Origin: a virus
Virus record (IMG/VR): IMGVR_UViG_3300045988_177308
Location: 1-49,185 of that record
Strand: one strand, 5' to 3'
DNA: 49,185 nt
In this document: positions 25,847 to 47,656 of the stretch, in pieces
How positions within the stretch are numbered: the first letter of the stretch is position 1
How the letters are laid out: every line of letters starts with the position of its first letter
The notes under the pieces: model-generated
The model's input: only the letters and a program-made list of their open reading frames with translations
Databases searched by the model: none
What the model was told of the DNA's origin: nothing
Translations under genes and position numbers: made by a program

Positions 25847-25876
25847 AATATCGTCCTTTCTACGATGGGTCTTCGA

Positions 25877-26907: not shown

Positions 26908-26922
26908 ACGTTTCTCCTTTCG

Positions 26923-31403: not shown

Positions 31404-31447
31404 CTTCTCTTCCTTTCTCTTCCGAACCGACGGTGTCTTATAGAGCA

Positions 31448-31472
31448 GGAACGGCCCCAACGGGGCCGTTCC
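31448..31472 (-). terminator. hairpin ggaacggcccc-aac-ggggccgttcc
   Basis: 11-bp perfect stem, 3-nt loop, between two minus-strand genes. Confidence 0.45.
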
Positions 31473-31485
31473 TTACTCCTTCCTC

Positions 31486-32085: not shown

Positions 32086-32099
32086 GGTGTTCTCCTCTC

Positions 32100-32867: not shown

Positions 32868-33202
32868 TCGTCTTCTCCTTTCTCTTGACGGATGTAAAGC
32901 TGCTCTGTGCTCTTAAGGCACTGGAGATATTCCTCTGCCGAAGCCAGCATTTTCACTCTTTTCGGATCCAACTTTTGAACATAGCAACGTCGAAGCGTAT
33001 CTCCAGATAGAGCCTTTTCAGCCGTCGATATATCGAAACGGTGAACCTCCCTTCGCGTAACTATGTACGGGCCAGCTACTCCGGACTCACCAATCTGCAG
33101 GCGTTGTTTGATGACCGCAGCGAGTTCCTTCTTCCTCTCTTCGAGGCTGTCGATGAGCCCCGATATGTAACCGTATTCGAGAATGTCGTCCTGTTCTTTC
33201 AT
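32864..33202 (-). CDS. hypothetical protein (112 aa)
   Basis: ORF overlapping neighbours by 4 nt. Confidence 0.45.
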   Translation of the reverse strand: MKEQDDILEYGYISGLIDSLEERKKELAAVIKQRLQIGESGVAGPYIVTRREVHRFDISTAEKALSGDTLRRCYVQKLDPKRVKMLASAEEYLQCLKSTEQLYIRQEKGEDE

Positions 33203-33215
33203 ACGATAACACCGC

Positions 33216-33953: not shown

Positions 33954-34319
33954 ACCAGTTGAAGCTCCCAACCTTTGTTGATTGCGAAGTTGATGATATG
34001 CTTACACTCGATAATAGCGGGTGTGTCGCCGGTGTTGTGCAAGATGATCGGCCCGTCCTTGTATTTCAGTGTGGTGTGTGGTTCAATTGCCGCTCGTTGA
34101 GTATCCCGCTGACCCCACACGTGTTGAATGAAGGGCACAGGTGCGAAGTAGAGCAGGTCGTTTTCCATGAGGTTGCGCATGTCCGCTAGCCCAAGGCAGT
34201 AATCCGCACCGTTGACGTCCAGCCACTTATTAAGAGCGGGGATGTATGCGTAGTGCTTATCGAAATTATCGAACAGCACAAATGCGTCCTTCAATCGCTC
34301 TTTAATGTAGTCGTCCATT
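33950..34319 (-). CDS. hypothetical protein (122 aa)
   Basis: ATG preceded by agagaaaggaggaacgaa. Confidence 0.5.
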
Positions 34320-34337
34320 TCGTTCCTCCTTTCTCTG

Positions 34338-34547
34338 TTAACCGAGAACGACGGCCTCCTCGGCCCCGAACCCGGCATTATTCGACTCGAAGAACTCGTC
34401 ATAATGCTCGTTGTACCCCACGCGGCAGTCGAACAAGTCGAGCGACTCAGCCGGGTACAACTGGTATCCTCTCGCCACGAACAGCTTCAAATCGCCGTAC
34501 TTGGCGCGGGCTTTCTCAAGGTCTTCGATGAACTCCGTGATCGTCAT
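34338..34547 (-). CDS. hypothetical protein (69 aa)
   Basis: ATG preceded by gagagaaaggaacacacc. Confidence 0.5.
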   Translation of the reverse strand: MTITEFIEDLEKARAKYGDLKLFVARGYQLYPAESLDLFDCRVGYNEHYDEFFESNNAGFGAEEAVVLG

Positions 34548-34575
34548 GGTGTGTTCCTTTCTCTCAATCAGCTTG

Positions 34576-34623
34576 TACCTTTACGGTACAGGCACAGCCC
34601 CGGACGTGCAAGCTGGGGCTGTG
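34576..34623 (-). terminator. two adjacent hairpins after helicase gene
   Basis: cacagcccc/ggggctgtg 9-bp stem plus gtacc/ggtac. Confidence 0.35.
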
Positions 34624-34632
34624 TGATATAGT

Positions 34633-36105
34633 TCACTTGTTCAGTACTGAACGATTGTTCTCCGCCTGCTGCGCGAGACGCTGGAACGTGCCGTCGTCCA
34701 TCGTGTCCCGAGCCTGGAAATAGTAGCGAATGATCCGCTCTGCAGGCTGGCCCATCCGGTTCAGCCGGCCCTTCGCCTGCTCGCACAGCATCCCGTTCAG
34801 GTCCTCGTCCAGCCACACCTCCACGTGGCACACGCGCTGCAGGCCGTCCAGGCCCTCAGCCGCGGCTCCGACAGTGCACAGCAAGACCTGCACACCCCCC
34901 GCTGTGAACCCCGCAAACGCCTCACTACGTGCCTTAGCCGACTGCGCACCCGTGTACAGAGCTGTCTTCGCACACACCCTGTGTGCAACAGCATTCGCGA
35001 ACCGTTGACTCGACGTGAACACCAGCACTTTGTCGTGTGCGTGGTACTTCTCGATCAGCGCGTTCAACATGTCAAGTTTCCTAGAGCGGCAGTCCGAGTC
35101 GAACGTCACCCTGTCCATGTCAATATCAGGGTCGTACACCATGCACGGCTCGCCCAACGCCACCTGACGCAGACGCACAAGCTTCACAATCGGAAGAGAC
35201 GCCACGAGCAAGCCGCCCTCGATCTCCGTGATCAACTCATACTGCAGGCTGTCATATATCTCACGCTGCTTGTGCGTCAATTCGCACTCGACGATACGCG
35301 TGTCCACGGGCTTCCTCTCGGCGGGCAAACCCACTACACACGGCAAAGAACGAAGGAACGCGCCCGGCTGCTTCTCCGAAACGATCGTCTCGATCTCCTG
35401 CAGTCTGCCGTATCTATCATGTATCCAACTGTTCTGAACAATGCACCACCTCGCTTTCCAGCGGTGGAAAGAACCCTCCACGTACAACCAGTCCCTCTTG
35501 TCGTGGGACAGCGGAACGCGGCTCGGATCTTCAACGTTCCACCACAACCAGCGGCAAATCGACCACAGCCCTTCGAACCGGTTGCCTTGCGGTGTGGCTG
35601 ACATCGCCAGCTTGAAGCCAGCATTCCGCAGGCTCCACATGGCCTTCGCCCTTCCGGATTTACGGTTCGACGCCGACTGCACCTCGTCATAGACGACGAA
35701 GTCAGGCTTGGCCTTCGACCAGGGGAGAAGGTTCTCTTTACCCTTCTCGATGTTCTTCGCATTATAGTCGGATAATCCTAGGTACTCCCTACCGACGTAG
35801 TAGACACCGGGCACACCGGCGCGGAGGTCGTCGAAATGGCCGAGGTGCTTCGAATCGATCCGCTTGAACGGAAGCTCCACGCCCTGCCGGGCGAACGTCG
35901 CCTTCCACGCGCTGACGATCTGCGGCTTCGCCGGCCCCACGATCAACGTCGTAGCCGGCTCAAGCCGCTTCGCCACCTCCACCGCACACAGGGTCTTGCC
36001 CGTCCCCGTGTCCGACACGTCCAAAGCGGCCCGGAAGCCACCCCGCTGTGCGACGATGGCCTCCACCTTCTCCAGTTGCGCCGGGGTAAGATCCAAGAAT
36101 GTCAC
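34633..36105 (-). CDS. SNF2/DEAD-like DNA helicase
   Basis: Walker A DTGTGKT, DEVQ box, helicase C-terminal motifs; GTGA overlap start. Confidence 0.85.
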   Translation of the reverse strand: MTFLDLTPAQLEKVEAIVAQRGGFRAALDVSDTGTGKTLCAVEVAKRLEPATTLIVGPAKPQIVSAWKATFARQGVELPFKRIDSKHLGHFDDLRAGVPGVYYVGREYLGLSDYNAKNIEKGKENLLPWSKAKPDFVVYDEVQSASNRKSGRAKAMWSLRNAGFKLAMSATPQGNRFEGLWSICRWLWWNVEDPSRVPLSHDKRDWLYVEGSFHRWKARWCIVQNSWIHDRYGRLQEIETIVSEKQPGAFLRSLPCVVGLPAERKPVDTRIVECELTHKQREIYDSLQYELITEIEGGLLVASLPIVKLVRLRQVALGEPCMVYDPDIDMDRVTFDSDCRSRKLDMLNALIEKYHAHDKVLVFTSSQRFANAVAHRVCAKTALYTGAQSAKARSEAFAGFTAGGVQVLLCTVGAAAEGLDGLQRVCHVEVWLDEDLNGMLCEQAKGRLNRMGQPAERIIRYYFQARDTMDDGTFQRLAQQAENNRSVLNK

Positions 36106-36662
36106 GCCCGCACCACCTCGAACTTCGCGCACGAGATATCGATCGAACGTACCAGAATGTCCATGTTCAGACCGATCGAGAATGCCTTAATGTAGTACTT
36201 GTCCACATCCGCCTTACCTTCAGGGTCCTTCGTCAAGAGGAACTCAGTACCATCGTATTTACGGCGGCACCATACATATCCCTGATCTTTCAGAATACCC
36301 GTCACCGAATCGGCAGGACACTCCTCCCCCTTCACGTGGAAAGGAGGGTCGTAGAAGCGATCCACCGTGTGCCGTGACGCGTCGTAGTAATACCCGGACG
36401 GGGCCTTGCCAGGTCTGAAAGGCGGTTCGTCCTGCTTGACCAGAATCAATCGAATCCCGTTGCACGTGTAGAAGACCTGCCGCTCCGACGCGTACCCGAT
36501 GCTGATAGCCCGGAACGGCTTGCCCTTGGCGTCTTCCACCGTCTCCCGATATGAGTTGTGCATCGCCTCACTTGACGTCGGCACATAATCCAGCGTGTCG
36601 TCCAGATTGACGGCGAACCAGCCCTCCAGCGGTCCCTTCTTCCCGTACAGCAACTGCCTCAC
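36102..36662 (-). CDS. putative DNA N6-adenine/N4-cytosine methyltransferase
   Basis: DPPF motif (FYDPPFH); GTG start overlapping whiB stop; 186 aa. Confidence 0.45.
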   Translation of the reverse strand: MRQLLYGKKGPLEGWFAVNLDDTLDYVPTSSEAMHNSYRETVEDAKGKPFRAISIGYASERQVFYTCNGIRLILVKQDEPPFRPGKAPSGYYYDASRHTVDRFYDPPFHVKGEECPADSVTGILKDQGYVWCRRKYDGTEFLLTKDPEGKADVDKYYIKAFSIGLNMDILVRSIDISCAKFEVVRA

Positions 36663-36946
36663 AGCTTGCCCTCCTCTTCTCTCCGTGCCCGGCGCTCGAA
36701 CGAGTCTTCCCCGCCTATCACGCCGAACAGCCTCTTCTGCCCTTTCTCCACGCGGTCCGCATAGTCCCTGCACTCACGTCGCACGGGGCAAACCGAGCAC
36801 ACCCACTTGGCCCGCGCATAGTAGGGGTCGTCCTCGACGTCGGCCCCCTCGCGGGGAGCGAAGAACAGGTGCATGCCGATGTCGCTCTTCTTGCAGCGCG
36901 CCTGCTTGACCCATTCTTCGCCCCTCCAGATGTCAGCGATGTCCAT
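36659..36946 (-). CDS. whiB: WhiB-family transcription regulator
   Basis: Four-Cys pattern C-x29-C-x2-C-x5-C and C-terminal basic tail. Confidence 0.8.
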   Translation of the reverse strand: MDIADIWRGEEWVKQARCKKSDIGMHLFFAPREGADVEDDPYYARAKWVCSVCPVRRECRDYADRVEKGQKRLFGVIGGEDSFERRARREEEGKL

Positions 36947-37488
36947 TACCGTTTCTTCACACACCCCTTGAGGCGGGACAGCTGGGGACCGATCGGGTTA
37001 CGGTAGTGCCCTTTTGTGTTGTACGGTTCCCTAGCCTTCGACGAAAGTTTCATGAATGACACCTGAGCGATCGGCTCCACACCGGTCGAATCCAACAACA
37101 GGTCGAAAACCGTCGGAAGAATCAACGGGTGGGAATTGACGTTGTATAGCTCCAGGGTGATCATCCCCTCGAACCCAGGATCGATGAAGCCTGCGGTGAT
37201 GTGCGTCAACAGCCCGAGGCGGCCCCAACTCGACCGGCCCTCCACCTGTGCGGCGATATTCGCTGGGAGAGAGAACTTCTCCAAGGTCGCTCCGAGCCAC
37301 AGTTCGCCGGGCGGGAGAACGAACTCGCTCCGTGCGCCCCAGGCCACATGCCGCTCACCTGTCTTCGTGTTGAGAAAGTACGGGCCTAGGTGCACGTCGT
37401 AACTAGCCGGTTGAAGGCAATCATCACGGAGCGGGTCCACCAGTCCCGTACGCTTCGCCAGTTTTTTAATGTCTCTGTCAGATAACAT
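36946..37488 (-). CDS. dcd: dCTP deaminase / dUTPase family
   Basis: ASYDVHLG, EGRSSWGRLGL, HITAGFIDPGFEG motifs. Confidence 0.8.
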   Translation of the reverse strand: MLSDRDIKKLAKRTGLVDPLRDDCLQPASYDVHLGPYFLNTKTGERHVAWGARSEFVLPPGELWLGATLEKFSLPANIAAQVEGRSSWGRLGLLTHITAGFIDPGFEGMITLELYNVNSHPLILPTVFDLLLDSTGVEPIAQVSFMKLSSKAREPYNTKGHYRNPIGPQLSRLKGCVKKR

Positions 37489-38094
37489 TGAATGACAGCC
37501 CCCTTCCATTTAGTGTGTATTGGTTCAGTCTGAACATCACGACGGGTTTTTGATCGCCCGGGTCGGCTGCGCAAATGCGCAGCATGTCGAAGCCGTCGCC
37601 GTGGTTGACGTCGACGCAGCCCACTGTGAAAGGGACCCTATTCGCGTCGATGCGCACACGGGAGGCGCCGTTCGACACAGCGTCGTAGTCGTCGTCCAGG
37701 TGAAGGCACAGCCCGCCGTCCGATACCGACACGGACTGGATGCGATAGCCCACCAGCGCCTCCCTCATATGGGAGATGAAGACGGGTAGCGGATCGGTCG
37801 GCTGGGACAGTCCGATCACGGCGACGACGTCGTTCATTCTATCGAACAGTTGCCACGTATACGACCCGTCTCCCGTCCGCCTGCGCGCCATACGCTTGAG
37901 AGGCATGGCGCACACGGCCGGCGCCGGGTGGTCAACGGTGAACTCAGATTTCTTCAAATACACTGAGGTGCCGTTGCCGAAGAAGAACGTCGTTCTGTTG
38001 ACAGAGTCAACAATGCGGTCGACGGTCCACCCTTCTCGCACAAGGGGGTTGAACAGGTCGAATATGTGCTGGAGCAGTTTCTCATCCTTACTCA
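37478..38094 (-). CDS. hypothetical protein (205 aa)
   Basis: ORF with consistent codon bias. Confidence 0.45.
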
Positions 38095-38648: not shown

Positions 38649-38698
38649 ATTGATTAATCCCTTCTCTCGGTGATATGCGTATTAAGAAGTGTATACGG

Positions 38699-38728
38699 AA
38701 AGGGCGGGGGCCGTCAAGCCCCCGCCCT
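38699..38728 (-). terminator. intrinsic terminator (minus strand)
   Basis: gggcgggggc/gcccccgccc 10-bp stem, followed on minus strand by TTTCC. Confidence 0.6.
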
Positions 38729-38748
38729 GTGAAATACGTCACTGTTTG

Positions 38749-39387
38749 TTACCGCATAGTGCGTTTACAAACAGACGTCAAACGCCACAAACCTGTTGAA
38801 CAATTGTTCTCCTCCCACGCTTCGCAGGTCGCGTGACTCCGAGCCGGCTTCAGCGTCAAAGAACCGTCTACCTCTCTCCACAGCCTGCCGAGAACCCGGG
38901 TCGAGCAGCTGTCCGGACCGGGGTCGAGGCCTTCCTCCAGGGGTGAGAAATCGCACAGCCATATAGCGCCCACGTCGTCCGCCCGGGCCAACGTCCGCCA
39001 CGGGTTCGTCTCCTGACTTTCCACAACAGGTGGAAACAACACCACATCGTACAAAGACACGTGCATGTGCTCCATGTACGCCTGAGGACTGTCGAACTCC
39101 AATACGTGCAGGTCGCCGACCGTCACATAGAAACGATCGAAGAAGCACAGCACCATGCGGAAACTCGAAGAGTCGAACACTCGCACACCGTGTAGCTTGT
39201 ACGGATCCAGCGGCTCCACGAACACCGGAATGTTGTCGAGATCCTTGAGAGGTACCAGACTTGCGGTGTGCGCTTCGACGTCCACGTGCAACACGCCGTA
39301 CATCGAACCCTCGAAACGGATGTAGTACTCTCTCAGCTTACTGCCCTGACCGGGCGGAATCAATTTCAAACCCACAGCAATCGTCAT
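38749..39387 (-). CDS. hypothetical protein (212 aa)
   Basis: SD aggaaggag. Confidence 0.5.
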   Translation of the reverse strand: MTIAVGLKLIPPGQGSKLREYYIRFEGSMYGVLHVDVEAHTASLVPLKDLDNIPVFVEPLDPYKLHGVRVFDSSSFRMVLCFFDRFYVTVGDLHVLEFDSPQAYMEHMHVSLYDVVLFPPVVESQETNPWRTLARADDVGAIWLCDFSPLEEGLDPGPDSCSTRVLGRLWREVDGSLTLKPARSHATCEAWEENNCSTGLWRLTSVCKRTMR

Positions 39388-39394
39388 CTCCTTC

Positions 39395-39610
39395 CTAGTC
39401 GTCTCCTAAATAGAACAACCCGATGGTATCGTGGTGCGGATACAACAGAACCTTCAGCCGCTTCGTCAACGGGTTGTATCTCGTCATATACCTCGCCTCC
39501 TCAGTGTTCACCGTGATCGTTCCGTCCTCCCTGTAATAGCGCACCGCTTGTGCGCTAGGCGCGGTGTCGTACGCTTCCGCTATAGCTCTGGCGATGTCCG
39601 TGTGCGTCAT
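39395..39610 (-). CDS. hypothetical protein (71 aa)
   Basis: ATGA overlap with upstream stop; SD aagtgaggtg. Confidence 0.45.
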   Translation of the reverse strand: MTHTDIARAIAEAYDTAPSAQAVRYYREDGTITVNTEEARYMTRYNPLTKRLKVLLYPHHDTIGLFYLGDD

Positions 39611-40071
39611 ATTTTGAGGCACCTCACTTTGAACGTTCTGACGAACTCGTCTTTCTTCATGTCAAACGGCTCACCTGTATCCGGCTCGCAGTGGATCGTC
39701 TTAGTCTCGCGGTTATACGTCAGGTCGCCTAAGAAAAACTCGTTACCTGAATCCAACGACACAGCTACACAACCATGCAACATCTCCGTATAGGGGTTCG
39801 GCTCGTTGTCCTCCACCGTGAACATGTTCGGCCAGTCTTCCGGCACCAGCTCCTGCAACACAGTGTTGTAGCACATGTCAGGCGGAAGGCGGTGGTGCGC
39901 AAGCAGAACATCCCCATAGGGGTTCGTGTACGGCACCGCCTCATCGCACGTCGTCAAGTTGAAATGCATCGGCAGTTCTTCGTCGAAGCGGGGACTGTTC
40001 GCGTCCACGCACACGAAACCGCGGTTCCTGATGTAGGCGCACAGGGAATCCTCGTAATCGTAGAACAGCAT
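39607..40071 (-). CDS. hypothetical Cys-rich protein (154 aa)
   Basis: SD aaaggaggg 7 nt upstream. Confidence 0.5.
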   Translation of the reverse strand: MLFYDYEDSLCAYIRNRGFVCVDANSPRFDEELPMHFNLTTCDEAVPYTNPYGDVLLAHHRLPPDMCYNTVLQELVPEDWPNMFTVEDNEPNPYTEMLHGCVAVSLDSGNEFFLGDLTYNRETKTIHCEPDTGEPFDMKKDEFVRTFKVRCLKI

Positions 40072-40084
40072 GTTAACCCTCCTT

Positions 40085-40573
40085 TCAGCAAGGCTCGACG
40101 ATGACCAACCACGGCTCGTCAGAGGTCTCATCTTCGAAGAACGACGTGATCACGTCCGACGTCGTGTCCGTCTCTTCGATCACGGACACCGCACCGATCT
40201 CAGACTTGAGCTCCACCGAAGCGGCGGGAGAGAGGACGATGGATACCTTATCCAGGCCCTCTTCGAACCACCGGCTGACGACGAAAGACACGCACACCCC
40301 CGCAGGCTGTGCGGAAACCGTGACCTTCTCCACTTCATGGTCCATTATCAAACCGAACCGCGTGCTGTCTTCATCGTATTCTGTCGTCACAGACGCCAAC
40401 TCCACATCGCCGACGTCGAAGAGCGTCGTCTTACAAACCCAATCACCCGTGTAGCGCTTCGTACAGGAGGACACCCACTGCTCCTTCGGTGTCACCGGAA
40501 TCTCCAAGCTTCTCACGTTCGGTTTCTTAGCCAGTTCTGCCAACAGCCCTGGTGTGTAATTAGTCCCTATCAC
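40085..40573 (-). CDS. hypothetical acidic protein (162 aa)
   Basis: GTG start after gaaaggagaaagagc. Confidence 0.5.
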   Translation of the reverse strand: MIGTNYTPGLLAELAKKPNVRSLEIPVTPKEQWVSSCTKRYTGDWVCKTTLFDVGDVELASVTTEYDEDSTRFGLIMDHEVEKVTVSAQPAGVCVSFVVSRWFEEGLDKVSIVLSPAASVELKSEIGAVSVIEETDTTSDVITSFFEDETSDEPWLVIVEPC

Positions 40574-40607
40574 GCTCTTTCTCCTTTCGTTCCGTGTCGT
40601 GTCATGC

Positions 40608-41045
40608 TTAAAGCAGGTAGTCGGCTTCGTCCTCGGAGTAAGGCCGGATCGCCGTCACAGTAGCCGGACCGTACGCCACCGCCGATATGCGGCGCCCAAA
40701 CTCGCAGTTTGGGCCCACCTGCACATCTGCGAACGGGAAGAGGTCAACAGGCTCCTCGCGTGTGCAGTCGTCGTCTTTCAGGATTGCGTAAAGCCGGCCG
40801 TCTTCCGCGTGACGCGTACCGACCAGTTTCTCGCCGAAGAGCGAATCGAACTGCGTGCTCACGATGTCCGACTTCAGCGTCATGAATTCGAACCCAGCGG
40901 CGTTGTAGAACCGCACGGTCGAGCCCTCGGCTGTGCGAGTGTCGACGATCGAAGCCGCCTGGCGGTCGACGACGTCAAGATGATGTGTAACGGTTTTCGC
41001 ATTGAACCGAGTGGCTTCGCTCTCAACAGTGGGCATTGTCCCCAT
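40608..41045 (-). CDS. hypothetical protein (145 aa)
   Basis: ATG after agagaaaggaacacatc. Confidence 0.5.
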   Translation of the reverse strand: MGTMPTVESEATRFNAKTVTHHLDVVDRQAASIVDTRTAEGSTVRFYNAAGFEFMTLKSDIVSTQFDSLFGEKLVGTRHAEDGRLYAILKDDDCTREEPVDLFPFADVQVGPNCEFGRRISAVAYGPATVTAIRPYSEDEADYLL

Positions 41046-41099
41046 GATGTGTTCCTTTCTCTCGGGTCGGCGGTTGTCCCGCCGTAGTTACAGTCTAGG

Positions 41100-41134
41100 C
41101 GCACACGGGGCGGCAGTCAAGCGCCCCGTGTGCG
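41100..41134 (-). terminator. 13-bp GC hairpin
   Basis: cgcacacggggcg/cgccccgtgtgcg. Confidence 0.45.
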
Positions 41135-41141
41135 ATGTACG

Positions 41142-41771
41142 TCACATTCCCCTTTGCAAGCCCGTGGTCCATTCGGCGATCTCCGCAGCCACGGAATCGG
41201 GCGTGTCGACGGGGGGGTCCACGACGATCGGTATGAACCTCGACAGCTCCCCCGCGACGAACGCGTTCGTCAGGAACGTCCGGTACGCCTCAGTCACCGC
41301 GAGGGGGTCGTAGCCGTCGGGGTCCGGGTAGTCCGGGTCCGTCAACTCGGCGGGGTCGCGGGGCATCAGCACGAACGTCGTCAGCGGAACGCGGTTCAGC
41401 CAGTTCAGCGTGAGCGCTACGTTCTCCGGTATGGGCTCGCCCCGCAGCGAGGCGTACACCTCGCTGCTGAGCGCCCACCTGTCCAGAATGTACAGCTGTT
41501 CTTCGCTCGCACTCGTCGGAGTGTCGGGGAACAGCACGGGCTCCGGTCGGAAGGAGAGCCAGTTCTCCATATCCCTCGCGTAGTCCTCCGCCTTCAGGCG
41601 GTGGTTTTCGCTTTGTGCACACACAGTCAGCACGTCCGTGGGGAAGTGCCGTATGCGCACATCGGAGTAAGAGGGGGCGGCGGTGCGGCTTTGAAAGAGC
41701 TCTTTCAGGGCTGCTGCTACAGTCGACTTCCCCACTCCGTCGGGACCCTCCAGTGCTATGTAAACTGCCAT
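41142..41771 (-). CDS. tmk: thymidylate kinase
   Basis: P-loop IALEGPDGVGKST characteristic of dTMP kinase. Confidence 0.8.
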   Translation of the reverse strand: MAVYIALEGPDGVGKSTVAAALKELFQSRTAAPSYSDVRIRHFPTDVLTVCAQSENHRLKAEDYARDMENWLSFRPEPVLFPDTPTSASEEQLYILDRWALSSEVYASLRGEPIPENVALTLNWLNRVPLTTFVLMPRDPAELTDPDYPDPDGYDPLAVTEAYRTFLTNAFVAGELSRFIPIVVDPPVDTPDSVAAEIAEWTTGLQRGM

Positions 41772-41790
41772 CGTCTATCGCTCCTTTCGT

Positions 41791-42300
41791 CTATCGCATA
41801 TGCGGCGCGGGCGTGCAGGATATGCCTGTCGCACACCCCTCTTCCGAGAACGCCTCGAACCACGTGTAGTCTTCCACTGCGGTCCACACCGTGTTCGTCG
41901 TGGGCTTACCGGGCCACAGCACATGGTAATCGGGGAGGGACACGGCCCCCTCGTCGATCACAGCGCCCGGCGCTATCCCGTAGCCCAAGTCGCACACGCA
42001 GTCCAACGGCAGGTTCTTGTGCACAACCGCATCCACTTCTATCAAGGGGTTGGAGAGCCTATCGCACAGCTCCAACGTCGCCTTCATTGGCATTGTGCGC
42101 ACACGGACGAGCCCCACCGTGAAGGGCTTCCGCTTCTCTTCATGCGGCTGCACGCATATCGAGCGCGCAAAGGGACTACGGCCGTACAGCACTACGGAAC
42201 CGGAGCGCACAGTGCCGTGGCGGTCCATCGCGGCGGGTTCTATCGTGCGGCCCGGCAGCGTCGCCAGGAGAGCGATGTCGAAAAAGGCTACGATCGTCAC
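41791..42300 (-). CDS. hypothetical protein (about 169 aa)
   Basis: Start ambiguous (GTG 42300 or GTG 42312). Confidence 0.4.
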   Translation of the reverse strand: MTIVAFFDIALLATLPGRTIEPAAMDRHGTVRSGSVVLYGRSPFARSICVQPHEEKRKPFTVGLVRVRTMPMKATLELCDRLSNPLIEVDAVVHKNLPLDCVCDLGYGIAPGAVIDEGAVSLPDYHVLWPGKPTTNTVWTAVEDYTWFEAFSEEGCATGISCTPAPHMR

Positions 42301-42301
42301 G

Positions 42302-42740
42302 TTACGCCGCACCCCCTTCCGCGTTCACGTCACCCAAGTCGTCCAAGCAGAACGGCCACCCGCACACAGACAGGTGCGGGTTCAACCCCGTCGCTTCGAT
42401 TATCCCCTTCACGGCATCCCGTGCGTTCAAACCGCGGGCGTTGACTTCTACGGCCTCGTCGCCCCGGTCCAGGGACGATGCGGAGAGAGGGGTGTTGTTC
42501 AGCACGATGTGTGTCCTGGCTTGACTAGTCAAGCGAACCAGCGGGGTGTACATCACCTGCAGTTCGCAGTAGAAGACGTTCAGCCGTTGGAAGAGCCACA
42601 CGCGCACAGCGGATTCGACGTCGGGTGTGAGGTTGTGAACGAACACCCACCTGTGAACGTCTTTTTTCGTCGAGGCGGGCCATTGTGCGCTGCATGAAGG
42701 CGTTCCCCTGCGAGCGTGCGGGCATCGCATAGTGCGTCAT
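42302..42740 (-). pseudogene. gene interrupted by a +1 frame change at an A6 tract (42662-42667); N-terminal 27 codons in one frame (ATG 42740, strong SD agaggaagggg), remainder in the 42302..42730 frame
   Basis: Third-position GC stays high only if the reading frame switches at GACGAAAAAAGAC; each frame alone gives Arg/Pro-rich wrong-frame-like sequence on the other side of the tract. Confidence 0.4.
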
Positions 42741-42745
42741 GTTGT

Positions 42746-43321
42746 TTATCCCCTTCCTCTAATGTCTTTCGCCATCTTCACCGCAGCCCGATATTCAGGC
42801 CACTGCTTCTCGTAGGGCCGGCGGTCCGCATCCCAGTAGTCCTTGTAGCTCAGCCCGGGGTTGGCCGCTATGAACTCGGCCAGAGAAGTGTAGAAGGCCT
42901 CCTTGAAGCGCTTGGCGCGTAGTTTGCGCGCCAGTTTTGAGGGGTCCGCCGGGTCTTTTCCGCGCAGGTCCACTTCGGACAGCGGGTTTGATTTGAACTC
43001 GCGGAACATGAGCCTTAAGCGCTTTCTCGCCGATATGTTGTCCCGTTCAGCGCCCGACAGCATCGCATCGTCCAGAGACGACGGCGTGGCGACGGCCACG
43101 CCGAGAGCTTCGAGTGCGGCCTTCAGAGAGCTGTAGCGCACAGGGGGGAGGAACTCCTCACCCCCTGTTTGCATCAGCTCGGGCACTATCAGGAGCGCCT
43201 TGTCGGCGTAGTTCGAATTGAGAACGATTCTCACTCCGTATTCGCTCTCCACGTCGGCTCGCAGTCCCTGTTCGTCCAGGTTTTCGTCGGCGACTTCGAT
43301 CGCCACGGCAATCCGTTTCAT
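42746..43321 (-). CDS. first gene of leftward early operon, hypothetical (191 aa)
   Basis: ATG 43321 after gagaggagaaatcgag. Confidence 0.55.
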   Translation of the reverse strand: MKRIAVAIEVADENLDEQGLRADVESEYGVRIVLNSNYADKALLIVPELMQTGGEEFLPPVRYSSLKAALEALGVAVATPSSLDDAMLSGAERDNISARKRLRLMFREFKSNPLSEVDLRGKDPADPSKLARKLRAKRFKEAFYTSLAEFIAANPGLSYKDYWDADRRPYEKQWPEYRAAVKMAKDIRGRG

Positions 43322-43355
43322 CTCGATTTCTCCTCTCACTCGAAAATGTATTTTC

Positions 43356-43422
43356 GATCGATTTCGACTCACATTGCGTGATCGATTTCAACTCGATTTT
43401 ATCCTAGGGACGGATCGATTTC
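43356..43422. repeat. three direct copies of GATCGATTTC (A/G-extended 16-mer) plus two partial copies in the leader of the leftward operon
   Basis: Copies at 43356, 43380 and 43413; third copy sits inside the promoter spacer. Confidence 0.55.
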
Positions 43423-43429
43423 AAGTCAA
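43401..43429 (-). promoter_or_regulatory. leftward promoter TTGACT-17-TAGGAT
   Basis: Read on minus strand: -35 at 43429-43424, -10 at 43406-43401. Confidence 0.45.
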
Positions 43430-43455
43430 ATCGTGGAATGTGAATTTGGTCACAG

Positions 43456-43477
43456 TAGTGTTGTGAGGGGTTGTGTT
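43456..43477 (+). promoter_or_regulatory. extended -10 element TGtTATAAT (rightward)
   Basis: gtgttataatc; no good -35. Confidence 0.3.
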
Positions 43478-43572
43478 ATAATCACGCGCCCGCGCGCACC
43501 CGACCCGGCGCACACCACATAGATCGGCGAGATGTCGCGGGTTCTGTGTCAAGCTCGGCCCCGGGGCGGTGG

Positions 43573-43624
43573 AAATTCTGACAGTGACTGTCAATTGACA
43601 GTGACTGTCAGAATTTCGATACAT
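43573..43624 (+). promoter_or_regulatory. twin 15-bp palindromic operators TGACAGtgaCTGTCA x2 flanked by inverted gaaattc/gaatttc, overlapping a TTGACA -35 (43595-43600) with TACAT-type -10 about 18 nt downstream
   Basis: Exact repeat 43579-43593 and 43596-43610 separated by 2 nt. Confidence 0.6.
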
Positions 43625-43952
43625 CTTTGAATTGAGAATCATTCTCACTAAGGAAAATACTCCTAATACACCACCCCCACACATACTACTACAACGTTAT
43701 ATATCCCTATTTGTATATTCCTTGTAATCCCTTGGTTTCCCTCCTTTGAAATTACAAAACCTCTTGGATCAGGGCAATGTGCTTGATCAATAAGGCGATG
43801 TCACACCCCGGGTATACCCAGCACGGTTTGCACTTGATGCTGTTTAAGAACAACGTGTTCTGCGTCTGTTCAGTTTTGTCACATTCTTCACACGCCCCCG
43901 CTGCGTGGGCTGTGCGCCTGGGGGTGTGCGCCTCCTCGCGGGCCCAGTTGCG

Positions 43953-44060
43953 CCTCAGGATCACGAGGTTGCCCTCTGAGGCGTTTTCAGGGTCGCCCCG
44001 GTAGGGTCGCTTGGGTAAGGGGCTGAAATCGCCTCAGAATCGATCCTCGTGATCCTGAGG
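43953..44060. repeat. 16-bp perfect inverted repeat CCTCAGGATCACGAGG / CCTCGTGATCCTGAGG, 76 nt apart, with a nested 9-bp inverted repeat
   Basis: Read directly; loop contains agggtcgc x2. Confidence 0.5.
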
Positions 44061-44150
44061 GGGTGCCGCTCGACCGCCGGTGCTGTGTGGTGTGCGCCTC
44101 GGGACTGTCCGTTCCGCTCGACCGCCGTTCTAATTTCCCTTATCTTTGAG

Positions 44151-44222
44151 CCCCGAAATTCGAAAATGGCCCTCTTTGTACCCGAAACCTGCCCCCGAAA
44201 TTCGAAAAGGGGCTTCTTTGTA
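44151..44222. repeat. two tandem ~41-bp direct repeats CCCCGAAATTCGAAAA..CTTTGTA
   Basis: 44151-44180 and 44192-44222. Confidence 0.5.
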
Positions 44223-44253
44223 ACGTTTAATGACAACCTTTACCTACGTAACC

Positions 44254-44379
44254 GTAAGTTACTGCTACGTAGGTGTAAGTTACCCTGTGGTAGGTTACGC
44301 TGGTGTAGGTTACTGGTGAGTAAGTTACCCAGTGGTAGGTTACGGCTTCGTAGGTGTAACCTACTGCGAGGTAGGTTAC
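44254..44379. repeat. iteron-like array: eight 9-mers GTA(A/G)GTTAC (one inverted) with 15-bp periodicity
   Basis: Copies at 44254, 44275, 44290, 44305, 44320, 44335, 44356 (inverted) and 44371. Confidence 0.7.
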
Positions 44380-44427
44380 CGTGGCGTATGGCGCTCAGAA
44401 ATGTGGTGAAGGACACACCGCTGGGGC

Positions 44428-44456
44428 TTGACACGGGGGGTGGCGGTTGATAGAAT
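44428..44456 (+). promoter_or_regulatory. consensus promoter TTGACA-17-TAGAAT (cassette 1)
   Basis: Perfect -35, 17-nt spacer, TAGAAT -10, followed by conserved leader agagagaaaggaaacccca. Confidence 0.7.
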
Positions 44457-44495
44457 GGAGGTACAACAAAGGGGAAAGAGAGAAAGGAAACCCCA

Positions 44496-44582
44496 ATGGA
44501 CATCGAAATCGACTTCTTCGAGGAGCTCGGCGGCTACTACACCGCAGACCTGGCAGACGTCCTGGAAGACTTCGAAGGCTGA
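44496..44582 (+). CDS. tiny acidic ORF (28 aa, MDIEIDFFEELGGYYTADLADVLEDFEG)
   Basis: ATG 7 nt after extended SD, in identical cassette context to the larger genes; followed by GC hairpin. Confidence 0.35.
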   Translation: MDIEIDFFEELGGYYTADLADVLEDFEG

Positions 44583-44585
44583 CCC

Positions 44586-44613
44586 GAAGGCCCCCGCCCC
44601 GGCGGGGGCCTTC
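44586..44613 (+). terminator. GC hairpin after tiny ORF
   Basis: gaaggcccccgcc/ggcgggggccttc. Confidence 0.45.
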
Positions 44614-44817
44614 CCATGCCCGCAGACGCGCCCCAGAATGGCCCCTGAGGCGCCTTCGGAGCCGGGGTGGGGCCACCCTACCGGCGAAGGCCCGCCAGGC
44701 TCTCAGGGGGCCGTCTGCGAGCTCGGAGGGGCGCCCCCGAAGGCGGGGGCTGGGCGCCTCCGGAGACGGCCCCGAGCAATTACGCAACGTCGGTGTTGCG
44801 AAAATCCCGGAACTCAA

Positions 44818-45043
44818 AATGTGAGCTTGGTCTCACTTTCGTGAAATCGGGACTAAAGTCCTAGCTCGAGGAACCATGTGAGCAATCTCACACTCGGAGA
44901 GGCTCTCGAGCAACCATGTGAGAAACATCACAATGTGAGATACATCACGCTCGGAGGGGCTCTCGAGGCTCTCGAGCAACCATGAAAAATACATTTTCCA
45001 GGGGCTCTCGAGCAACCATGAAAATGTGACACACACCATACCC
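44818..45043. repeat. four tandem degenerate repeats (CTCGGAGRGGCTCTCGAGCAACCATG...) containing five ATGTGA(G) motifs and palindromes TGTGAG-N4-6-CTCACA
   Basis: Palindromes at 44821-44836 and 44878-44893; ATGTGA at 44819, 44876, 44916, 44932 and 45022. Confidence 0.5.
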
Positions 45044-45050
45044 GAGCGGC

Positions 45051-45085
45051 TTGACACGGCGCCTCCGGCTGTGCGAGGATAGAGC
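45051..45085 (+). promoter_or_regulatory. cassette 2 promoter (TTGACA, then TGcGAGGAT extended -10 at 18 nt)
   Basis: -35 perfect; -10 assignment uncertain (TAGAGC lies 23 nt downstream). Confidence 0.35.
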
Positions 45086-45116
45086 CATCGGAACAACAGA
45101 GAGAAAGGAAACTCCG

Positions 45117-45338
45117 ATGACCGCGAAGTACCCCTACAGCCAGGCCCTGGCGAAGTCGCTCACCGAGAAGCTCGGGGGCCTCGCCTTCGTCCTGCCCGAC
45201 GGCGCAGTCCAGGCCGATACCCCCGACGGCACCCTGACCGTCTACGCCGACGGCGCCGTGAGAGTTCGCGAGTGCGGCGAAACCGAAGCCTGGCCCACCC
45301 TCCGCAGCGCCGTCGCCGACTGGGGCGTGGAAGTGTGA
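45117..45338 (+). CDS. small early protein (73 aa)
   Basis: ATG after agagaaaggaaactccg. Confidence 0.6.
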   Translation: MTAKYPYSQALAKSLTEKLGGLAFVLPDGAVQADTPDGTLTVYADGAVRVRECGETEAWPTLRSAVADWGVEV

Positions 45339-45347
45339 GCTACCCCA

Positions 45348-45389
45348 CTCCGGAGGGGCTTGACAGCCCCTCCGGAGGACCGCTAGAAT
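45348..45389 (+). promoter_or_regulatory. cassette 3: 12-bp inverted repeat ctccggaggggc/gcccctccggag with TTGACA as its loop, then 18 nt and TAGAAT
   Basis: Read directly; hairpin begins 10 nt after upstream stop. Confidence 0.6.
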
Positions 45390-45424
45390 GAAGACATCGG
45401 AACGAAGAGAGAAAGGAAACTCCG

Positions 45425-45739
45425 ATGAACACCTGGAAAGTCGCCAACGCCGTCGTCCGGCACCTCGAAGCCACGATCCCCGTCTACGACGTCTCCGAGC
45501 GAGGCTACAGCCTCTACGTCAGCCTCGTAGACGGCCGCGACTTCATCGTCGACGCCCCGTTCGAGGGCGACGTCAGGATCACCCCCGGTGTGCGCACCTC
45601 CGAAGGCGGCCTGCAGCTTCTCGAAGACCTGGAAGCCGAGCTCACGGACGCCGGCTTCGACGTCCGCCAGGTGCGCTGCAGCCGAACCCTCGCCACCGAG
45701 CTCCGTGTGCGCGACGACGTAGGCGGGTGGGACTGGTGA
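45425..45739 (+). CDS. small early protein (104 aa)
   Basis: ATG after agagaaaggaaactccg. Confidence 0.65.
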   Translation: MNTWKVANAVVRHLEATIPVYDVSERGYSLYVSLVDGRDFIVDAPFEGDVRITPGVRTSEGGLQLLEDLEAELTDAGFDVRQVRCSRTLATELRVRDDVGGWDW

Positions 45740-45909
45740 GGCGTTTCTGGGCGTCCGTCGCCGTCGCAGCCGGCATCCTGGCCGGCTGGGGCTGCGGCGA
45801 GGATCTCGGCCGCTGGGACGCCTACGCGGGCATCCGCGACGAACCGACGGTGCTGGGCTTGACTGTGATACAGGTCATACACTACGGGCTTGACACAGCC
45901 GCCCGATAG
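45736..45909 (+). CDS. possible small membrane ORF (57 aa)
   Basis: GTGA overlap with upstream stop; hydrophobic FWASVAVAAGILAGWGCG; reads through cassette 4 promoter. Confidence 0.3.
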   Translation: MRRFWASVAVAAGILAGWGCGEDLGRWDAYAGIRDEPTVLGLTVIQVIHYGLDTAAR

Positions 45910-45919
45910 CCACTAGACT
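45890..45919 (+). promoter_or_regulatory. cassette 4 promoter TTGACA-18-TAGACT
   Basis: Followed by agagatatcag...agagaaaggaaaagctg. Confidence 0.55.
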
Positions 45920-45955
45920 AGAGATATCAGCGAAGACGAGAGAAAGGAAAAGCTG

Positions 45956-46081
45956 ATGCATACCACCACCTTCATCCCCGAAATCGACGTCCCCGACTTC
46001 GTCGCCAGCCTCCGGGCAGACCGCGAGCGCCAGCGAGCACGACGCCGGAGCCGCCGTCAGAACCGCGGATGGGAGGCCTGA
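45956..46081 (+). CDS. tiny ORF (41 aa, Arg-rich C-terminus)
   Basis: ATG after cassette leader. Confidence 0.35.
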   Translation: MHTTTFIPEIDVPDFVASLRADRERQRARRRSRRQNRGWEA

Positions 46082-46084
46082 GCG

Positions 46085-46204
46085 ATGACCTGGCTCGACT
46101 TCGCACAGGGCATCTGGGACGCCTTCTACGGCCTCATGTCCACCTCCGAAGAGCTCGTGGAGCACCTTCCGACGCCGCTGCAGTGTTTCTTCGACTGGTG
46201 TTAA
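46085..46204 (+). CDS. tiny ORF (39 aa)
   Basis: ATG 4 nt after upstream stop, SD gggagg. Confidence 0.3.
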   Translation: MTWLDFAQGIWDAFYGLMSTSEELVEHLPTPLQCFFDWC

Positions 46205-46215
46205 CGACATCACAC

Positions 46216-46254
46216 CGAAGGCCGCTTGACAGCGGCCTTCGGGCCGACTAGACT
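46216..46254 (+). promoter_or_regulatory. cassette 5: inverted repeat cgaaggccgc/gcggccttcg with TTGACA loop, 17 nt, TAGACT
   Basis: Read directly. Confidence 0.6.
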
Positions 46255-46290
46255 AGAGATATCAGGAAGACAGAGAGAAAGGAAACCCTG

Positions 46291-46926
46291 ATGATCAACC
46301 GTTACCTCACCGCCGTCTCCGACGCCGACATCCTGGACGCCGCCTCCGACGCCCTCGTGGATGCGGGGTGGAGCCTGGACGAAGACCGAGAGCTACCTTT
46401 CGAGGCGGACTACTACGAGGATCCGGAGGCCGCCTTCGAGGTTGACTCCGAGTGGAGCGAGATCCAGGCCGACGCCGTCGGCAGGCTCTGGGACCGGCTC
46501 TCCGACGAAGAGCGGGTGGAGCTTTGGCTGCACGACTGTGCGGGGCAGGATCCCGACGAGCCCGTCGACGCCGAGACGGTCTGGGAGCGGATGGAGGCCG
46601 CCGTGCTAGAGCGGCTCGGGAGCGTCTACGAGGACACGGGCGCCTCCGTCACGGAGGCCTGCACCCGAGCTCTGAGGCTGACTTCGGCCAAGGCCCTGGC
46701 CAGGGTACTGGGCCTGTACGAAGCCGCCCGAGCGGATGCCCGGAGGCACTGGGGCGGGTCTTCGAAGGTGCGGACCTTCGACGTCGAGCACGGCACCGTG
46801 GTGGTCCGGAGCGAAGGCGGCGCCGTGGAGGCTCGACTGAGGCCGGCCTTCGAGGAAGGCGATGACGAAGGCGCCGTCATCGTGGAGATGCTCGGGGACG
46901 CGCTCCGCGAAGTCGGGCTCGACTGA
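46291..46926 (+). CDS. highly acidic early protein (211 aa)
   Basis: ATG after agagagaaaggaaaccctg; Asp/Glu-rich throughout. Confidence 0.7.
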   Translation: MINRYLTAVSDADILDAASDALVDAGWSLDEDRELPFEADYYEDPEAAFEVDSEWSEIQADAVGRLWDRLSDEERVELWLHDCAGQDPDEPVDAETVWERMEAAVLERLGSVYEDTGASVTEACTRALRLTSAKALARVLGLYEAARADARRHWGGSSKVRTFDVEHGTVVVRSEGGAVEARLRPAFEEGDDEGAVIVEMLGDALREVGLD

Positions 46927-46972
46927 CGTTTCACGTGAAACGGATTGGGGCCGCCGCCGAAGGCGGCGGCCC
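46927..46972 (+). terminator. double hairpin after acidic gene
   Basis: cgtttcacgtgaaacg palindrome then gggccgccgcc/ggcggcggccc. Confidence 0.5.
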
Positions 46973-47123
46973 GGAAAGGGGGGTGCTATTGAGAATCAAT
47001 ATCACTAAGATCTGGGTTGGAATAGTTGGACTCATGTACGCGGCGTGGTTCGTCTGCGTCATCGTCGAAGCGATAAGTTACCCTACGGTAGGGTAGGTAA
47101 TACAAGTTGGAGTGGTAGGAAAA

Positions 47124-47165
47124 GTAGCCCCTAGGACTAACGTCCTAGGGGCTACTTGTGTTTTT
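47124..47165 (+). terminator. rho-independent terminator
   Basis: 12-bp stem gtagcccctagg/cctaggggctac followed by ttgtgttttt. Confidence 0.75.
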
Positions 47166-47203
47166 GGTGGGAAAAGTTGGAATTTTTGGATGGGTGGGTC
47201 GAC

Positions 47204-47232
47204 TTGCATGGGGGGACCCAACCGCATACATT
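47204..47232 (+). promoter_or_regulatory. candidate promoter TTGCAT-17-TACATT
   Basis: Read directly; upstream of low-GC gene at 47282. Confidence 0.4.
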
Positions 47233-47281
47233 AATCGCTATTTTTCACTACTGGAAATCATACCGAGGTACGATCGCTATA

Positions 47282-47656
47282 ATGGTCTCTGTGCACGACA
47301 TAATCCTCATCGCCGACCACCTTCTAGGGGCGCCAGCAGTGGGCTTAGGCGCCCTTATAACCGCTATTGCGACGCTTTACACGTCATTGAAGACCAATAG
47401 GAAGGTCCTTAGCGTCAAACAAGACATGGAAAACAACCATGGGAGTTCCTTACGGGATGCGATAGACCGCATAGAGAACAACACCAAAGTCTTGACGGAC
47501 CTCGTGCACATGCACACAGGGCAGTTGGATGACATCCAGTGTGCTGTGCGCCGACACGACGAAGAGATAAAATCGTGGCATGACAAGCCCACGGCCCCCG
47601 CAGCACCCCCTTGTGCGCATACGGAAGATCTACAACGAGGCGACGATAACGCCTAA
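47282..47656 (+). CDS. membrane-anchored protein (N-terminal TM helix, coiled C-terminal domain), lower GC
   Basis: Hydrophobic IILIADHLLGAPAVGLGALITAIATLYTSL; upstream of lysis genes. Confidence 0.5.
   Translation: MVSVHDIILIADHLLGAPAVGLGALITAIATLYTSLKTNRKVLSVKQDMENNHGSSLRDAIDRIENNTKVLTDLVHMHTGQLDDIQCAVRRHDEEIKSWHDKPTAPAAPPCAHTEDLQRGDDNA

Follow-up and report, generated by a model that had tools for sequence, protein, structure and literature searches.

A conserved, repeat-rich non-coding hub in an uncultured actinobacterial phage as a candidate replication origin and early promoter region

Positions 43322-44495 of the 49,185-nt stretch of DNA analysed here (the window; IMG/VR record IMGVR_UViG_3300045988_177308) form a repeat-dense interval, which we call the hub, between a leftward arm that carries the replication genes and a rightward early arm. 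The window is a complete phage genome of ~49 kb with a G+C content of ~59%. Here we describe the architecture of the hub, its conservation in related phages from metagenomes, and the joint replacement of its left half with the adjoining gene gp191 and part of a distant primase-helicase, gp817. With moderate confidence, we infer from these sequences that the hub unites the early promoters of both arms with a replication origin.

Gene arms, open reading frames and repeats at the hub

Assemblies of relatives are circularly permuted, and the rightward arm reads through 49 kb into the lysin and terminase genes, which makes the hub the main divergence point of the two gene arms (Table 1); a lone gene of 69 amino acids (aa) on the opposite strand (1433-1642) is the exception to this layout. 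A gene for a WhiB-type regulator (36659-36964) indicates an actinobacterial host, and an uncultured, virulent-type actinobacterial siphophage is the best explanation of the genome. As the original prediction had held, no integrase and no recognisable repressor were found: among the 61 open reading frame (ORF) translations scanned, which cover part of the window, none was an integrase or a helix-turn-helix repressor, and the WhiB-type gene is present. Lysogeny functions were likewise not found. A search of 185,579 bacterial species genomes returned no relatives, no prophage copy and no clue to the host; there is therefore no sign of a plasmid-prophage lifestyle.

The comparison set comprised 25 IMG/VR genomes recruited via the neighbouring gene, 24 of which hold the DNA upstream, all aligning to the hub. 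Frame-conservation checks on both strands took in 24 to 29 related metagenomic phage genomes. The hub does contain ORFs of 70-133 aa, two of them with coding-like third-position G+C, but all candidate frames in 43640-44020 are broken by stops or frameshifts in the 24 aligned relatives. The hub thus codes for no conserved protein: the earlier statement that it holds no convincing ORF, to be qualified by the existence of these frames, stands once relatives are consulted. A minus-strand ORF at 43752-43964, with a CxxC...CxxC pattern and high third-position GC, was rejected on account of internal stops and frameshifts in relatives. An ORF running through the iteron array (MTTFTYVTVSY...), annotated in some relatives as an 82-86-aa gene, was also rejected, because its first stop ranges from codon 23 to beyond codon 100 and its frame shifts in four genomes. 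Independent gene calls on ENA contigs left ~1.25 kb empty, with at most the repeat-peptide ORF of the iteron array called. An Rfam scan of the hub gave a best E-value of 0.089, with scores far under the gathering thresholds, and a tRNA scan of the hub found none.

The six repeat and palindrome systems originally predicted in the hub are all present, close to where they had been placed and far above chance. At the left edge, four of the six window copies of TCGATTTC fall within 100 bp, spanning the -35, -10, expected transcription start, 5' leader and ribosome site of the leftward promoter P_L; the copies are conserved across relatives with a variable spacer at 43367-43380, and a divergent clade retains three of the four. 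Promoter-like sites number four in the hub (1.0 +/- 0.9 expected), and three of them, P_L, P_R' and P_R1, are conserved in all relatives. The hexamer columns of P_L are conserved across 25 genomes, relatives carrying the -10 variants TAGAAA, TAAAAA and CAGAAT, and the P_R1 and P_L hexamers are 100% conserved. The -10 hexamer of P_R' is invariant in 25 aligned genomes, with a composite score of 0.89 that takes in arbitrary -35 positions; within the divergent clade it is unchanged in three genomes and reads TGCTATAAT in a fourth (L073).

About 100 bp past P_R' begins the segment 43580-43780, which has the lowest GC of any 200 bp in the genome and is its least stable DNA; the top strand of 43661-43760 is the most G-depleted stretch (6 G per 100 nt). 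This A+T-rich core lies ~470 bp from the GTARGTTAC array and is flanked instead by palindromes and by GGCGCACAC copies in opposite orientations, plus at 43507 and minus at 43910, 43924 and 44090. The hub thus has four copies of GGCGCACAC, and three of the seven exact copies in the window fall in it (0.17 expected). The same flanking is seen in the hub of lineage Y', which also has a plus-orientation GGCGCACAC left of its A+T-rich core.

The palindromes form an exchangeable cassette. In the window, TGACAGTGACTGTCA occurs at 43579 and 43596 (17-bp period), its only exact copies in 49 kb, enclosed by a 46-bp near-perfect palindrome (43572-43617) ~95-130 bp downstream of the P_R' -10. Relatives carry other 15-17-bp palindromes in varied combinations, including CGTTCAGGACTGAACG, GAGACACAGTGTCTC, TTTCGCTATATGTCGAAA, TGAGAATCRTTCTCA and GAGACACWGTGTCTC, in 1 to 3 copies per cassette, with TGACAGTGACTGTCA itself present in 1-3 copies. 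None of these palindromes overlaps the conserved promoter hexamers, and among proteins encoded within +/-10 kb no regulator co-varies with palindrome type. The predicted twin palindromic operators are therefore real as palindromes but represent one of several interchangeable cassettes, for which a matching regulator was not found among those proteins. Some palindrome types recur elsewhere, within gp191 at 43219, at 46990 after a terminator (B-type) and at 34638 (D-type).

Several side observations concern these recurring sites. A unit of 21-24 nt, AATTGAGAAYSATTCTCACT(AAG), is present in three copies (43212-43235, 43626-43649 and 46988-47010) and looks like a dispersed regulatory site; the copy in gp191 coding sequence is kept in nearly all genomes, the hub copy in 8, and the third follows the terminator of the gene at 46291-46926. 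The intergenic stretch 46927-47155 combines a strong terminator hairpin (46948-46972), the B-type palindrome, an iteron-like ATAAGTTAC at 47073 and a perfect 32-bp hairpin at about 47125-47156, and may be a second switch point, possibly from early to late. The SNF2 helicase gene carries the D-type palindrome TTGTTCAGTACTGAACGA at its 3' end (34548-34654); a hairpin and a leader like those of the early cassettes follow, and the site may mark an internal terminator and promoter of the leftward arm.

In the right half, the direct repeats predicted as tandem 41-bp units are present with a period of 42 bp, not 41. The 19-mer TCTTTGAGCCCCGAAATTC from this half is exact in 31 IMG/VR contigs, including 7 missed by the protein search. 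Eight GTARGTTAC copies lie at 44254-44379 and one elsewhere in the window; against 0.27 expected, no shuffle reached 9. Across relatives the array spans 171 to 275 nt with 5-9 strict copies each, spaced by 15 bp in 151 cases and by 21 bp in 61; its core positions carry mostly 1.4-2.0 bits (0.84 at the A/G position) and its spacers 0.17-0.45 bits. The array thus has the three or more repeats, conserved cores, free spacers and regular spacing of an iteron-type origin such as lambda ori or plasmid oriV.

Rightward of the array, P_R1 opens a series of five repeated promoter-leader cassettes; the remaining four start at 45050, 45359, 45888 and 46226. All five (44427-44498, 45050-45120, 45359-45427, 45888-45958 and 46226-46293) read GCTTGACA, 17 nt, TAGAMT, AGAGAGAAAGGAAAC and ATG. 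A small rightward gene follows each of them, and they are like the mobile early-promoter cassettes of other phages. The micro-ORF MDIEIDFFEELGGYYTADLADVLEDFEG that bounds the hub is present in 18 of 25 genomes (12 identical, 6 with one substitution), some other relatives having a different gene of ~69 aa at its position. It is directly followed by a G+C-rich hairpin (44586-44613) with a weak 6C-like Rfam match. A second untranslated stretch of ~530 bp (44583-45113), 84-93% conserved, contains nested G+C-rich hairpins (44586-44770) and the repeat families CCATGTGAGnnnCnTCACA and GGCTCTCGAGCAACCATG, the latter about four times. Since the untranslated zone runs to 45113 and is broken only by a 28-aa ORF, the control region really measures ~1.8 kb.

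Table 1. Features of the hub and of the surrounding genome (a point in the strand column marks features listed without strand)
Feature	Position	Strand	Remarks
Start codon (43321-43319) and Shine-Dalgarno GAGAGGAG (complement of 43330-43337) of gp191	43319-43338	-	protein conserved in 25 IMG/VR genomes
TCGATTTC / GATCGATTTC repeats	43323-43422	-	exact at 43323, 43358, 43382, 43415; degenerate at 43393
Palindrome CGAAAATGTATTTTCG	43341-43356		among TCGATTTC repeats
P_L, predicted leftward promoter	43396-43424	-	TTGAAA-17 nt-TAAAAT; scores 10/12
P_R', predicted rightward promoter	43473-43483	+	extended -10 TGTGTTATAAT, without good -35; faces A+T-rich segment
GGCGCACAC, left copy	43507-43515	+	inverted relative to minus-strand copies at 43910, 43924, 44090
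Mosaic palindrome cassette	43540-43660	.	twin TGACAGTGACTGTCA and TGAGAATCATTCTCA in this genome
Third palindrome, TGAGAATCATTCTCA	43633-43647		
A+T-rich core, candidate DNA-unwinding element	43580-43780	.	GC 0.375 (genome ~0.59)
Two-allele segment	43700-43850	.	~60% identity between alleles; linked to gp191 allele
Lineage-specific near-invariant block	43847-44062	.	93-95% identical in 24 relatives; absent from Y, Y'
GGCGCACAG/C, two copies	43910 and 43924	-	inside block 43847-44062
Long inverted repeat	43953-43990 / 44023-44060		38-nt arms, 84% complementary
Universal block	44063-44243	.	shared by W, W', Y (96.6%), Y' (81%)
CGCTCGACCGCCG, two copies (paired 13-bp repeats)	44067 and 44115		universal block
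GGCGCACAC copy	44090	-	universal block
CCCCGAAAnnnnAAAAnGGnnnTCTTTGTA direct repeats	44151-44180 and 44193-44222		42-bp period; 30-nt core, 90% identity
Iteron array, GTA[A/G]GTTAC	44244-44388	+	9-bp near-palindrome with 6-bp spacers; 7 plus, 1 minus copies
P_R1, predicted rightward early promoter	44428-44456	+	TTGACA-17 nt-TG-TAGAAT; scores 11/12
Acidic 28-aa micro-ORF MDIEIDFFEELGGYYTADLADVLEDFEG	44496-44582	+	right-hand boundary of hub
gp191, first leftward gene	42746-43321	-	basic C-terminal half; replaced together with hub left half
gp817, primase-helicase	29007-31460	-	matches DUF3987, E = 9.9e-9
gp817, helicase and C-terminal part	29010-30505	-	swapped together with hub left half
Rightward genes	1-21 kb		lysin, DHFR, terminase, structural genes
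Leftward arm, part 1	from 43321 to 21.1 kb (whole arm)		thymidylate-kinase-like protein, dCTP deaminase, WhiB, SNF2-type helicase, PD-(D/E)XK nuclease
Leftward arm, part 2			AAA_24 ATPase, DUF3987 primase-helicase gp817, family A DNA polymerase, glutaredoxin, ThyA, NrdD/NrdG, cytosine methylase
Right end of window	44496 to end		small rightward genes

Conservation and replacement of the hub

Across the 24 aligned relatives the hub is 75-92% identical. In 100-nt bins, 43300-43500 and 43900-44300 reach 93-95% identity, against 75-90% for most coding DNA, and these two blocks have the highest identities with full alignment in the 15 kb compared (34-49 kb); mean column identity over 43840-44260 is 94%. 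The near-invariance shows no codon pattern. The hub is more conserved than the surrounding genes and under strong selection. Its repeat cores are kept, its spacers are free and its array copy number varies, a pattern that resembles that of binding sites. The motif GAAATYS forms a further repeat system, with 10 of its 24 genome copies inside the hub (0.59 expected). The comparison with related genomes that the original prediction called for thus finds the region non-coding, with no conserved protein in any frame, and functionally constrained. Absence of the repeats from all relatives, named there as a sign of an assembly artefact, was not seen: they are present in every relative, and the hub is therefore no such artefact.

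In evolutionary terms the hub falls into three classes of sequence. Positions 44063-44500 form a universal right half and positions 43322-44062 a left half specific to lineages, which holds the back-to-back promoters P_L and P_R'; the third class is the shuffling palindrome cassette inside the left half. Mosaic junctions occur at about 43540, 43700, 43873 and 44063. The right half is 81-97% identical in all lineages examined (Y 96.6%, Y' 81%) and common to W, W', Y and Y'. The left half is ~68% identical in clade W', where the A+T-rich core is not alignable, and lineages Y and Y' have unrelated sequence of like layout in its place, with 24-bp palindromes, an A+T-rich, G-poor core and TATAAT.

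Replacement of the left half is matched by replacement within gp817. Residues 1-300 (the primase part) are 82-100% identical in all lineages; the helicase and C-terminal part falls into types that, relative to the window, are 92-100% (W), ~85% (W'), 55-75% (X, exemplified by P0126) and 30-38% (Y) identical, with Y' 63-85% identical to Y. Residues ~300-798 are thus a domain-swap hotspot, with at least four or five discrete types on a near-constant primase domain. The clearest view comes from contig 134100 (type Y), which is 90-94% like the window over 25738-29023, 30504-37687, 38688-42220 and 44063-47517, with short gaps between, and is replaced in two major segments: 29023-30504, the helicase and C-terminal part, and 42300-44063, comprising part of gp142, gp191 and the left half of the hub. 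Its gp817 is 91-95% identical to that of the window over residues 1-300 and only 30-38% over residues 300-798. A Y' contig likewise holds a Y' helicase together with a Y' gp191-like gene, the DNA between them being 77-88% like the window. Among 26 IMG/VR genomes, no mixed combination of helicase type and left half was found. The joint replacement of the left half and gp191 with a helicase part ~13 kb from the hub points to an origin-initiator specificity pair.

The AlphaFold2 model of gp817 has a predicted local distance difference test (pLDDT) score of 51 overall; its last ~75 residues (pLDDT 64-86) are modelled as strand-helix-helix-strand-strand, and a search against the Protein Data Bank (PDB) with the gp817 sequence gave no match. 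For gp191, no match was found in Pfam, PHROGs, NCBIfam or the PDB sequence set, and its AlphaFold2 model (pLDDT 61) had no significant match in Foldseek; the versions in Y and Y' are 243-256 aa long.

Other differences among the contigs were noted in passing. Thymidylate synthase is called as 473 aa in Y-lineage contigs (L114, 14766-16187), against 269 aa in the window (25877-26686); its alignment is broken at 26226-26489, which suggests an insertion, for example an intein or a fused domain. Independent IMG/VR contigs (L001, L002, L005) end 5.2-5.9 kb right of gp191, near the end of the window, and other assemblies read through; the shared ends may reflect a physical genome end or a terminal repeat just upstream of the lysin gene.

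A proposed replication origin with early promoters, and its rivals

In the reading we favour, the left half (43322-44062), with P_L, P_R', the A+T-rich core and the inverted-repeat block, would be the origin proper. A matched initiator would recognise it, the candidate being the helicase and C-terminal part of gp817 with its winged-helix-like tail, possibly together with gp191; the A+T-rich core would melt, perhaps aided by transcription from P_R'. The TCGATTTC repeats over P_L would be sites for a factor regulating the replication operon, and the palindrome cassette an exchangeable operator or hairpin module. In the right half, the paired repeats and the 15-bp-period array upstream of P_R1 would bind a factor common to all lineages, which would complete the origin or control P_R1, the first early promoter. 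If the left half is an origin, covariation with the gp817 helicase and C-terminal module is what one would expect. The original prediction of a combined origin and early-transcription switch therefore gains from the three conserved promoters, the divergence of the arms, the lowest-GC DNA of the genome and this covariation, but not from the iteron array, which does not co-vary with replication proteins.

Several observations weigh against an origin here. The GTARGTTAC array stays 81-97% identical where the helicase and C-terminal part is ~33% identical and gp191 is replaced, and no covariation of the array with any replication protein was found; it is therefore not the specificity site of the helicase and C-terminal domain. 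Because Y and Y' are related, the swap evidence amounts to effectively one ancestral event. The helicase and gp191 might also be matched to each other as interacting proteins, the left half simply hitchhiking beside gp191. The assignment of the gp817 C-terminus as winged-helix-like is weak: winged-helix domains were the top matches of a fold search, none of them significant (E-values >= 0.36). Known origins of the self-loading primase-helicase type adjoin the initiator gene, and the hub, unlike these, lies 12 kb from the gp817 gene. A G-depleted non-template strand usually disfavours a stable R-loop, and the strand downstream of P_R' is G-depleted. Finally, GC skew computed along the genome tracks coding strand and gene orientation, and so locates no origin.

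A more specific form of the origin reading, which we judge possible but less likely than not, is a two-part origin, in which the left half, matched to the exchangeable gp817 helicase/winged-helix module and gp191, would be joined to a universal half made of the 42-bp repeats and the array of 9-bp palindromes. The factor reading the universal half could be the primase domain or an early protein, both conserved, or could come from the host.

The main rival, possible yet improbable in our judgement, is purely transcriptional control, in which the repeats bind phage or host factors that time both arms, and replication starts elsewhere or by recombination. It would account for three conserved promoters within the hub and for repeats that sit over or immediately upstream of them. 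The iteron array is inherited along with the rightward early arm and separately from the replication genes, and may thus serve promoter control rather than initiator binding; the B- and D-type palindromes recur at intergenic or regulatory positions (46990 and 34638), and the window encodes a WhiB-type regulator. Against this, the ~700 bp between the promoters (43500-44240), near-invariant over 400 bp, exceed usual operator needs, the ORFs scanned yielded no helix-turn-helix or ribbon-helix-helix regulator, and no protein co-varies with palindrome type. Above all, the co-replacement of a helicase and C-terminal part 13 kb away with the left half would be left unexplained.

It is unlikely that the conserved blocks encode one or more non-coding RNAs, for example a P_R' transcript acting as replication primer or regulator, as in the ColE1 and lactococcal phage c2 origins or the RNA-based origins of mycobacteriophage prophages that are kept outside the chromosome. 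The invariant extended -10 of P_R' does point into ~950 nt without a conserved ORF, the near-invariance lacks a codon pattern, and 43940-44070 of the window folds well (z = -5.06); transcribed non-coding origins are documented in actinobacteriophages (PMC7157519). Yet no Rfam match rose above noise, and the block at 43847-44062 is wholly missing from Y and Y'. The predicted long inverted repeat is present in the window, but relatives do not preserve it as a hairpin: in most of them three mismatched bases interrupt the stem, one arm changes in the divergent clade with the other fixed, substitutions break predicted pairs uncompensated, and predicted loops are as invariant as stems. Covariation is absent as well (RNAalifold term -0.35; 500 of 500 shuffles reach the observed score). 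We therefore rejected a conserved hairpin, and the inverted-repeat block is constrained at the level of primary sequence.

A packaging (pac/cos) site, a partition site or a recombination hotspot whose repeats lack specific function is very improbable: the short near-palindrome arrays are like plasmid centromeres and the mosaic junctions would suit a hotspot, but the terminase genes lie 8 kb off across the map junction, several contigs end about 5.2-5.9 kb right of the hub and not inside it, ParA-, ParB- or ParR-like genes are absent among the ORFs scanned, bacterial genomes hold no relatives, and conservation above that of all neighbouring DNA is not expected of a passive hotspot.

Collectively, these results do not overturn current views of phage replication. 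The W and Y types provide a natural experiment on origin recognition by primase-helicase initiators, hub fragments could be used to build replicons or shuttle vectors for the actinobacterial host, and the hub and swap types can serve as markers for typing the modular evolution of these phages. Were the two-part origin true, these phages would change their origin specificity by exchanging two unlinked modules in concert, and the universal half would represent an initiation or early-switch element not described before.

Comparison with cultured phages and known systems

The phage group is abundant in metagenomes; a metagenome search with the neighbouring gene returned 695 homologues, one of them named as a metagenome-assembled Caudoviricetes sequence. 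No close cultured relative is known, a literature search found no described relative, and the INPHARED phage collection gave neither a DNA match to the hub nor a tblastn match to the neighbouring protein. The nearest cultured phages, Curtobacterium phage Yappy and 'Stenotrophomonas' virus Jojan60, share only ~25% primase identity, and no hub homologue was found in either. As a separate observation, Jojan60 (L056, ON045087.1), a distant terminase and primase relative, has its own 1.1-kb gene-free, repeat-rich gap at 18325-19457, with palindromes and direct repeats, adjoining a gene for a 'putative DNA binding protein', and encodes WhiB, which is odd in a Stenotrophomonas phage.

Among known systems, self-loading primase-helicases offer several parallels. 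Rep/PriRep of staphylococcal pathogenicity islands (SaPIs) and P4 alpha combine primase and helicase in one polypeptide, initiator specificity and origin are exchanged together, and SaPI origins lie directly downstream of rep. The SaPI replication helicase uses a C-terminal winged helix to recognise iterons, which lie in opposite orientations on the two sides of an A+T-rich stretch (PMC9371898). Similarly, gp817 matches DUF3987 and has a predicted winged-helix-like tail, GGCGCACAC copies flank the A+T-rich core of the hub in opposite orientations (their binding by gp817 being putative), and the helicase and C-terminal part co-varies with the left half. The hub differs in lying 12 kb from gp817, in being far larger, in carrying three promoters too, and in the independence of its longest iteron array from initiator type; the sequences are not similar.

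The lambda ori lies inside the O gene, has four 19-bp iterons and depends on transcription nearby to become active. Lambdoid phages can swap their iterons, together with the co-varying part of the initiator that binds the origin, as one specificity module (see also PMC7466680 and PMC3017604). The hub shares with lambda ori the combination of iterons and an A+T-rich region, but is non-coding, multipartite and distant from its candidate initiator, and the phage has no O or P homologues.

Transcript-primed origins include the T7 primary origin and ColE1, and minimal T4 origins are ~100 bp long, without iteron arrays. In T4 oriF and oriG an A+T-rich unwinding element follows ~100 bp downstream of a sigma-70-type -10 promoter (PMC3016281), much as the invariant P_R' is directed into 43580-43780. 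Unlike these, the hub has iteron arrays, and its G-depleted non-template strand argues against a stable hybrid. The RNA-based, protein-free origins of extrachromosomal prophages of non-RepA cluster A mycobacteriophages belong to plasmid-like prophage maintenance and lie next to parABS. In these phages, a non-coding segment is necessary and sufficient for replication, probably via a transcribed RNA (PMC7157519). Ours, too, is an actinobacteriophage with a non-coding segment, but genes for partition or integration were not found, nor were relatives among bacterial genomes, and the hub shows neither sequence similarity to these origins nor covariation support for an RNA.

Lambdoid immunity regions (OR/OL, CI, Cro) resemble the hub in their divergent promoters and in nearby dyad sites that vary as exchangeable cassettes. 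They differ in that no repressor or Cro-like gene adjoins the hub: among the scanned proteins of either arm, including all those beside the hub, none matched a helix-turn-helix or ribbon-helix-helix domain. The hub palindromes, moreover, lie off the promoter hexamers and have no co-varying protein, and lysogeny functions were not found. The original prediction was thus correct that the region does not obviously match classical immunity regions, but it overstated how unusual the region is, because iterons, an A+T-rich stretch and a promoter are the layout of known origin architectures. Taken together, iterons, A+T-rich core, promoters and specificity swapped with the initiator would place the hub in a known kind of phage or plasmid origin, with no sequence kinship to those described. 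What is unusual lies in its details: its size, its two-part evolution, the 15-bp phasing of 9-bp palindromes and the 12-kb distance to the candidate initiator.

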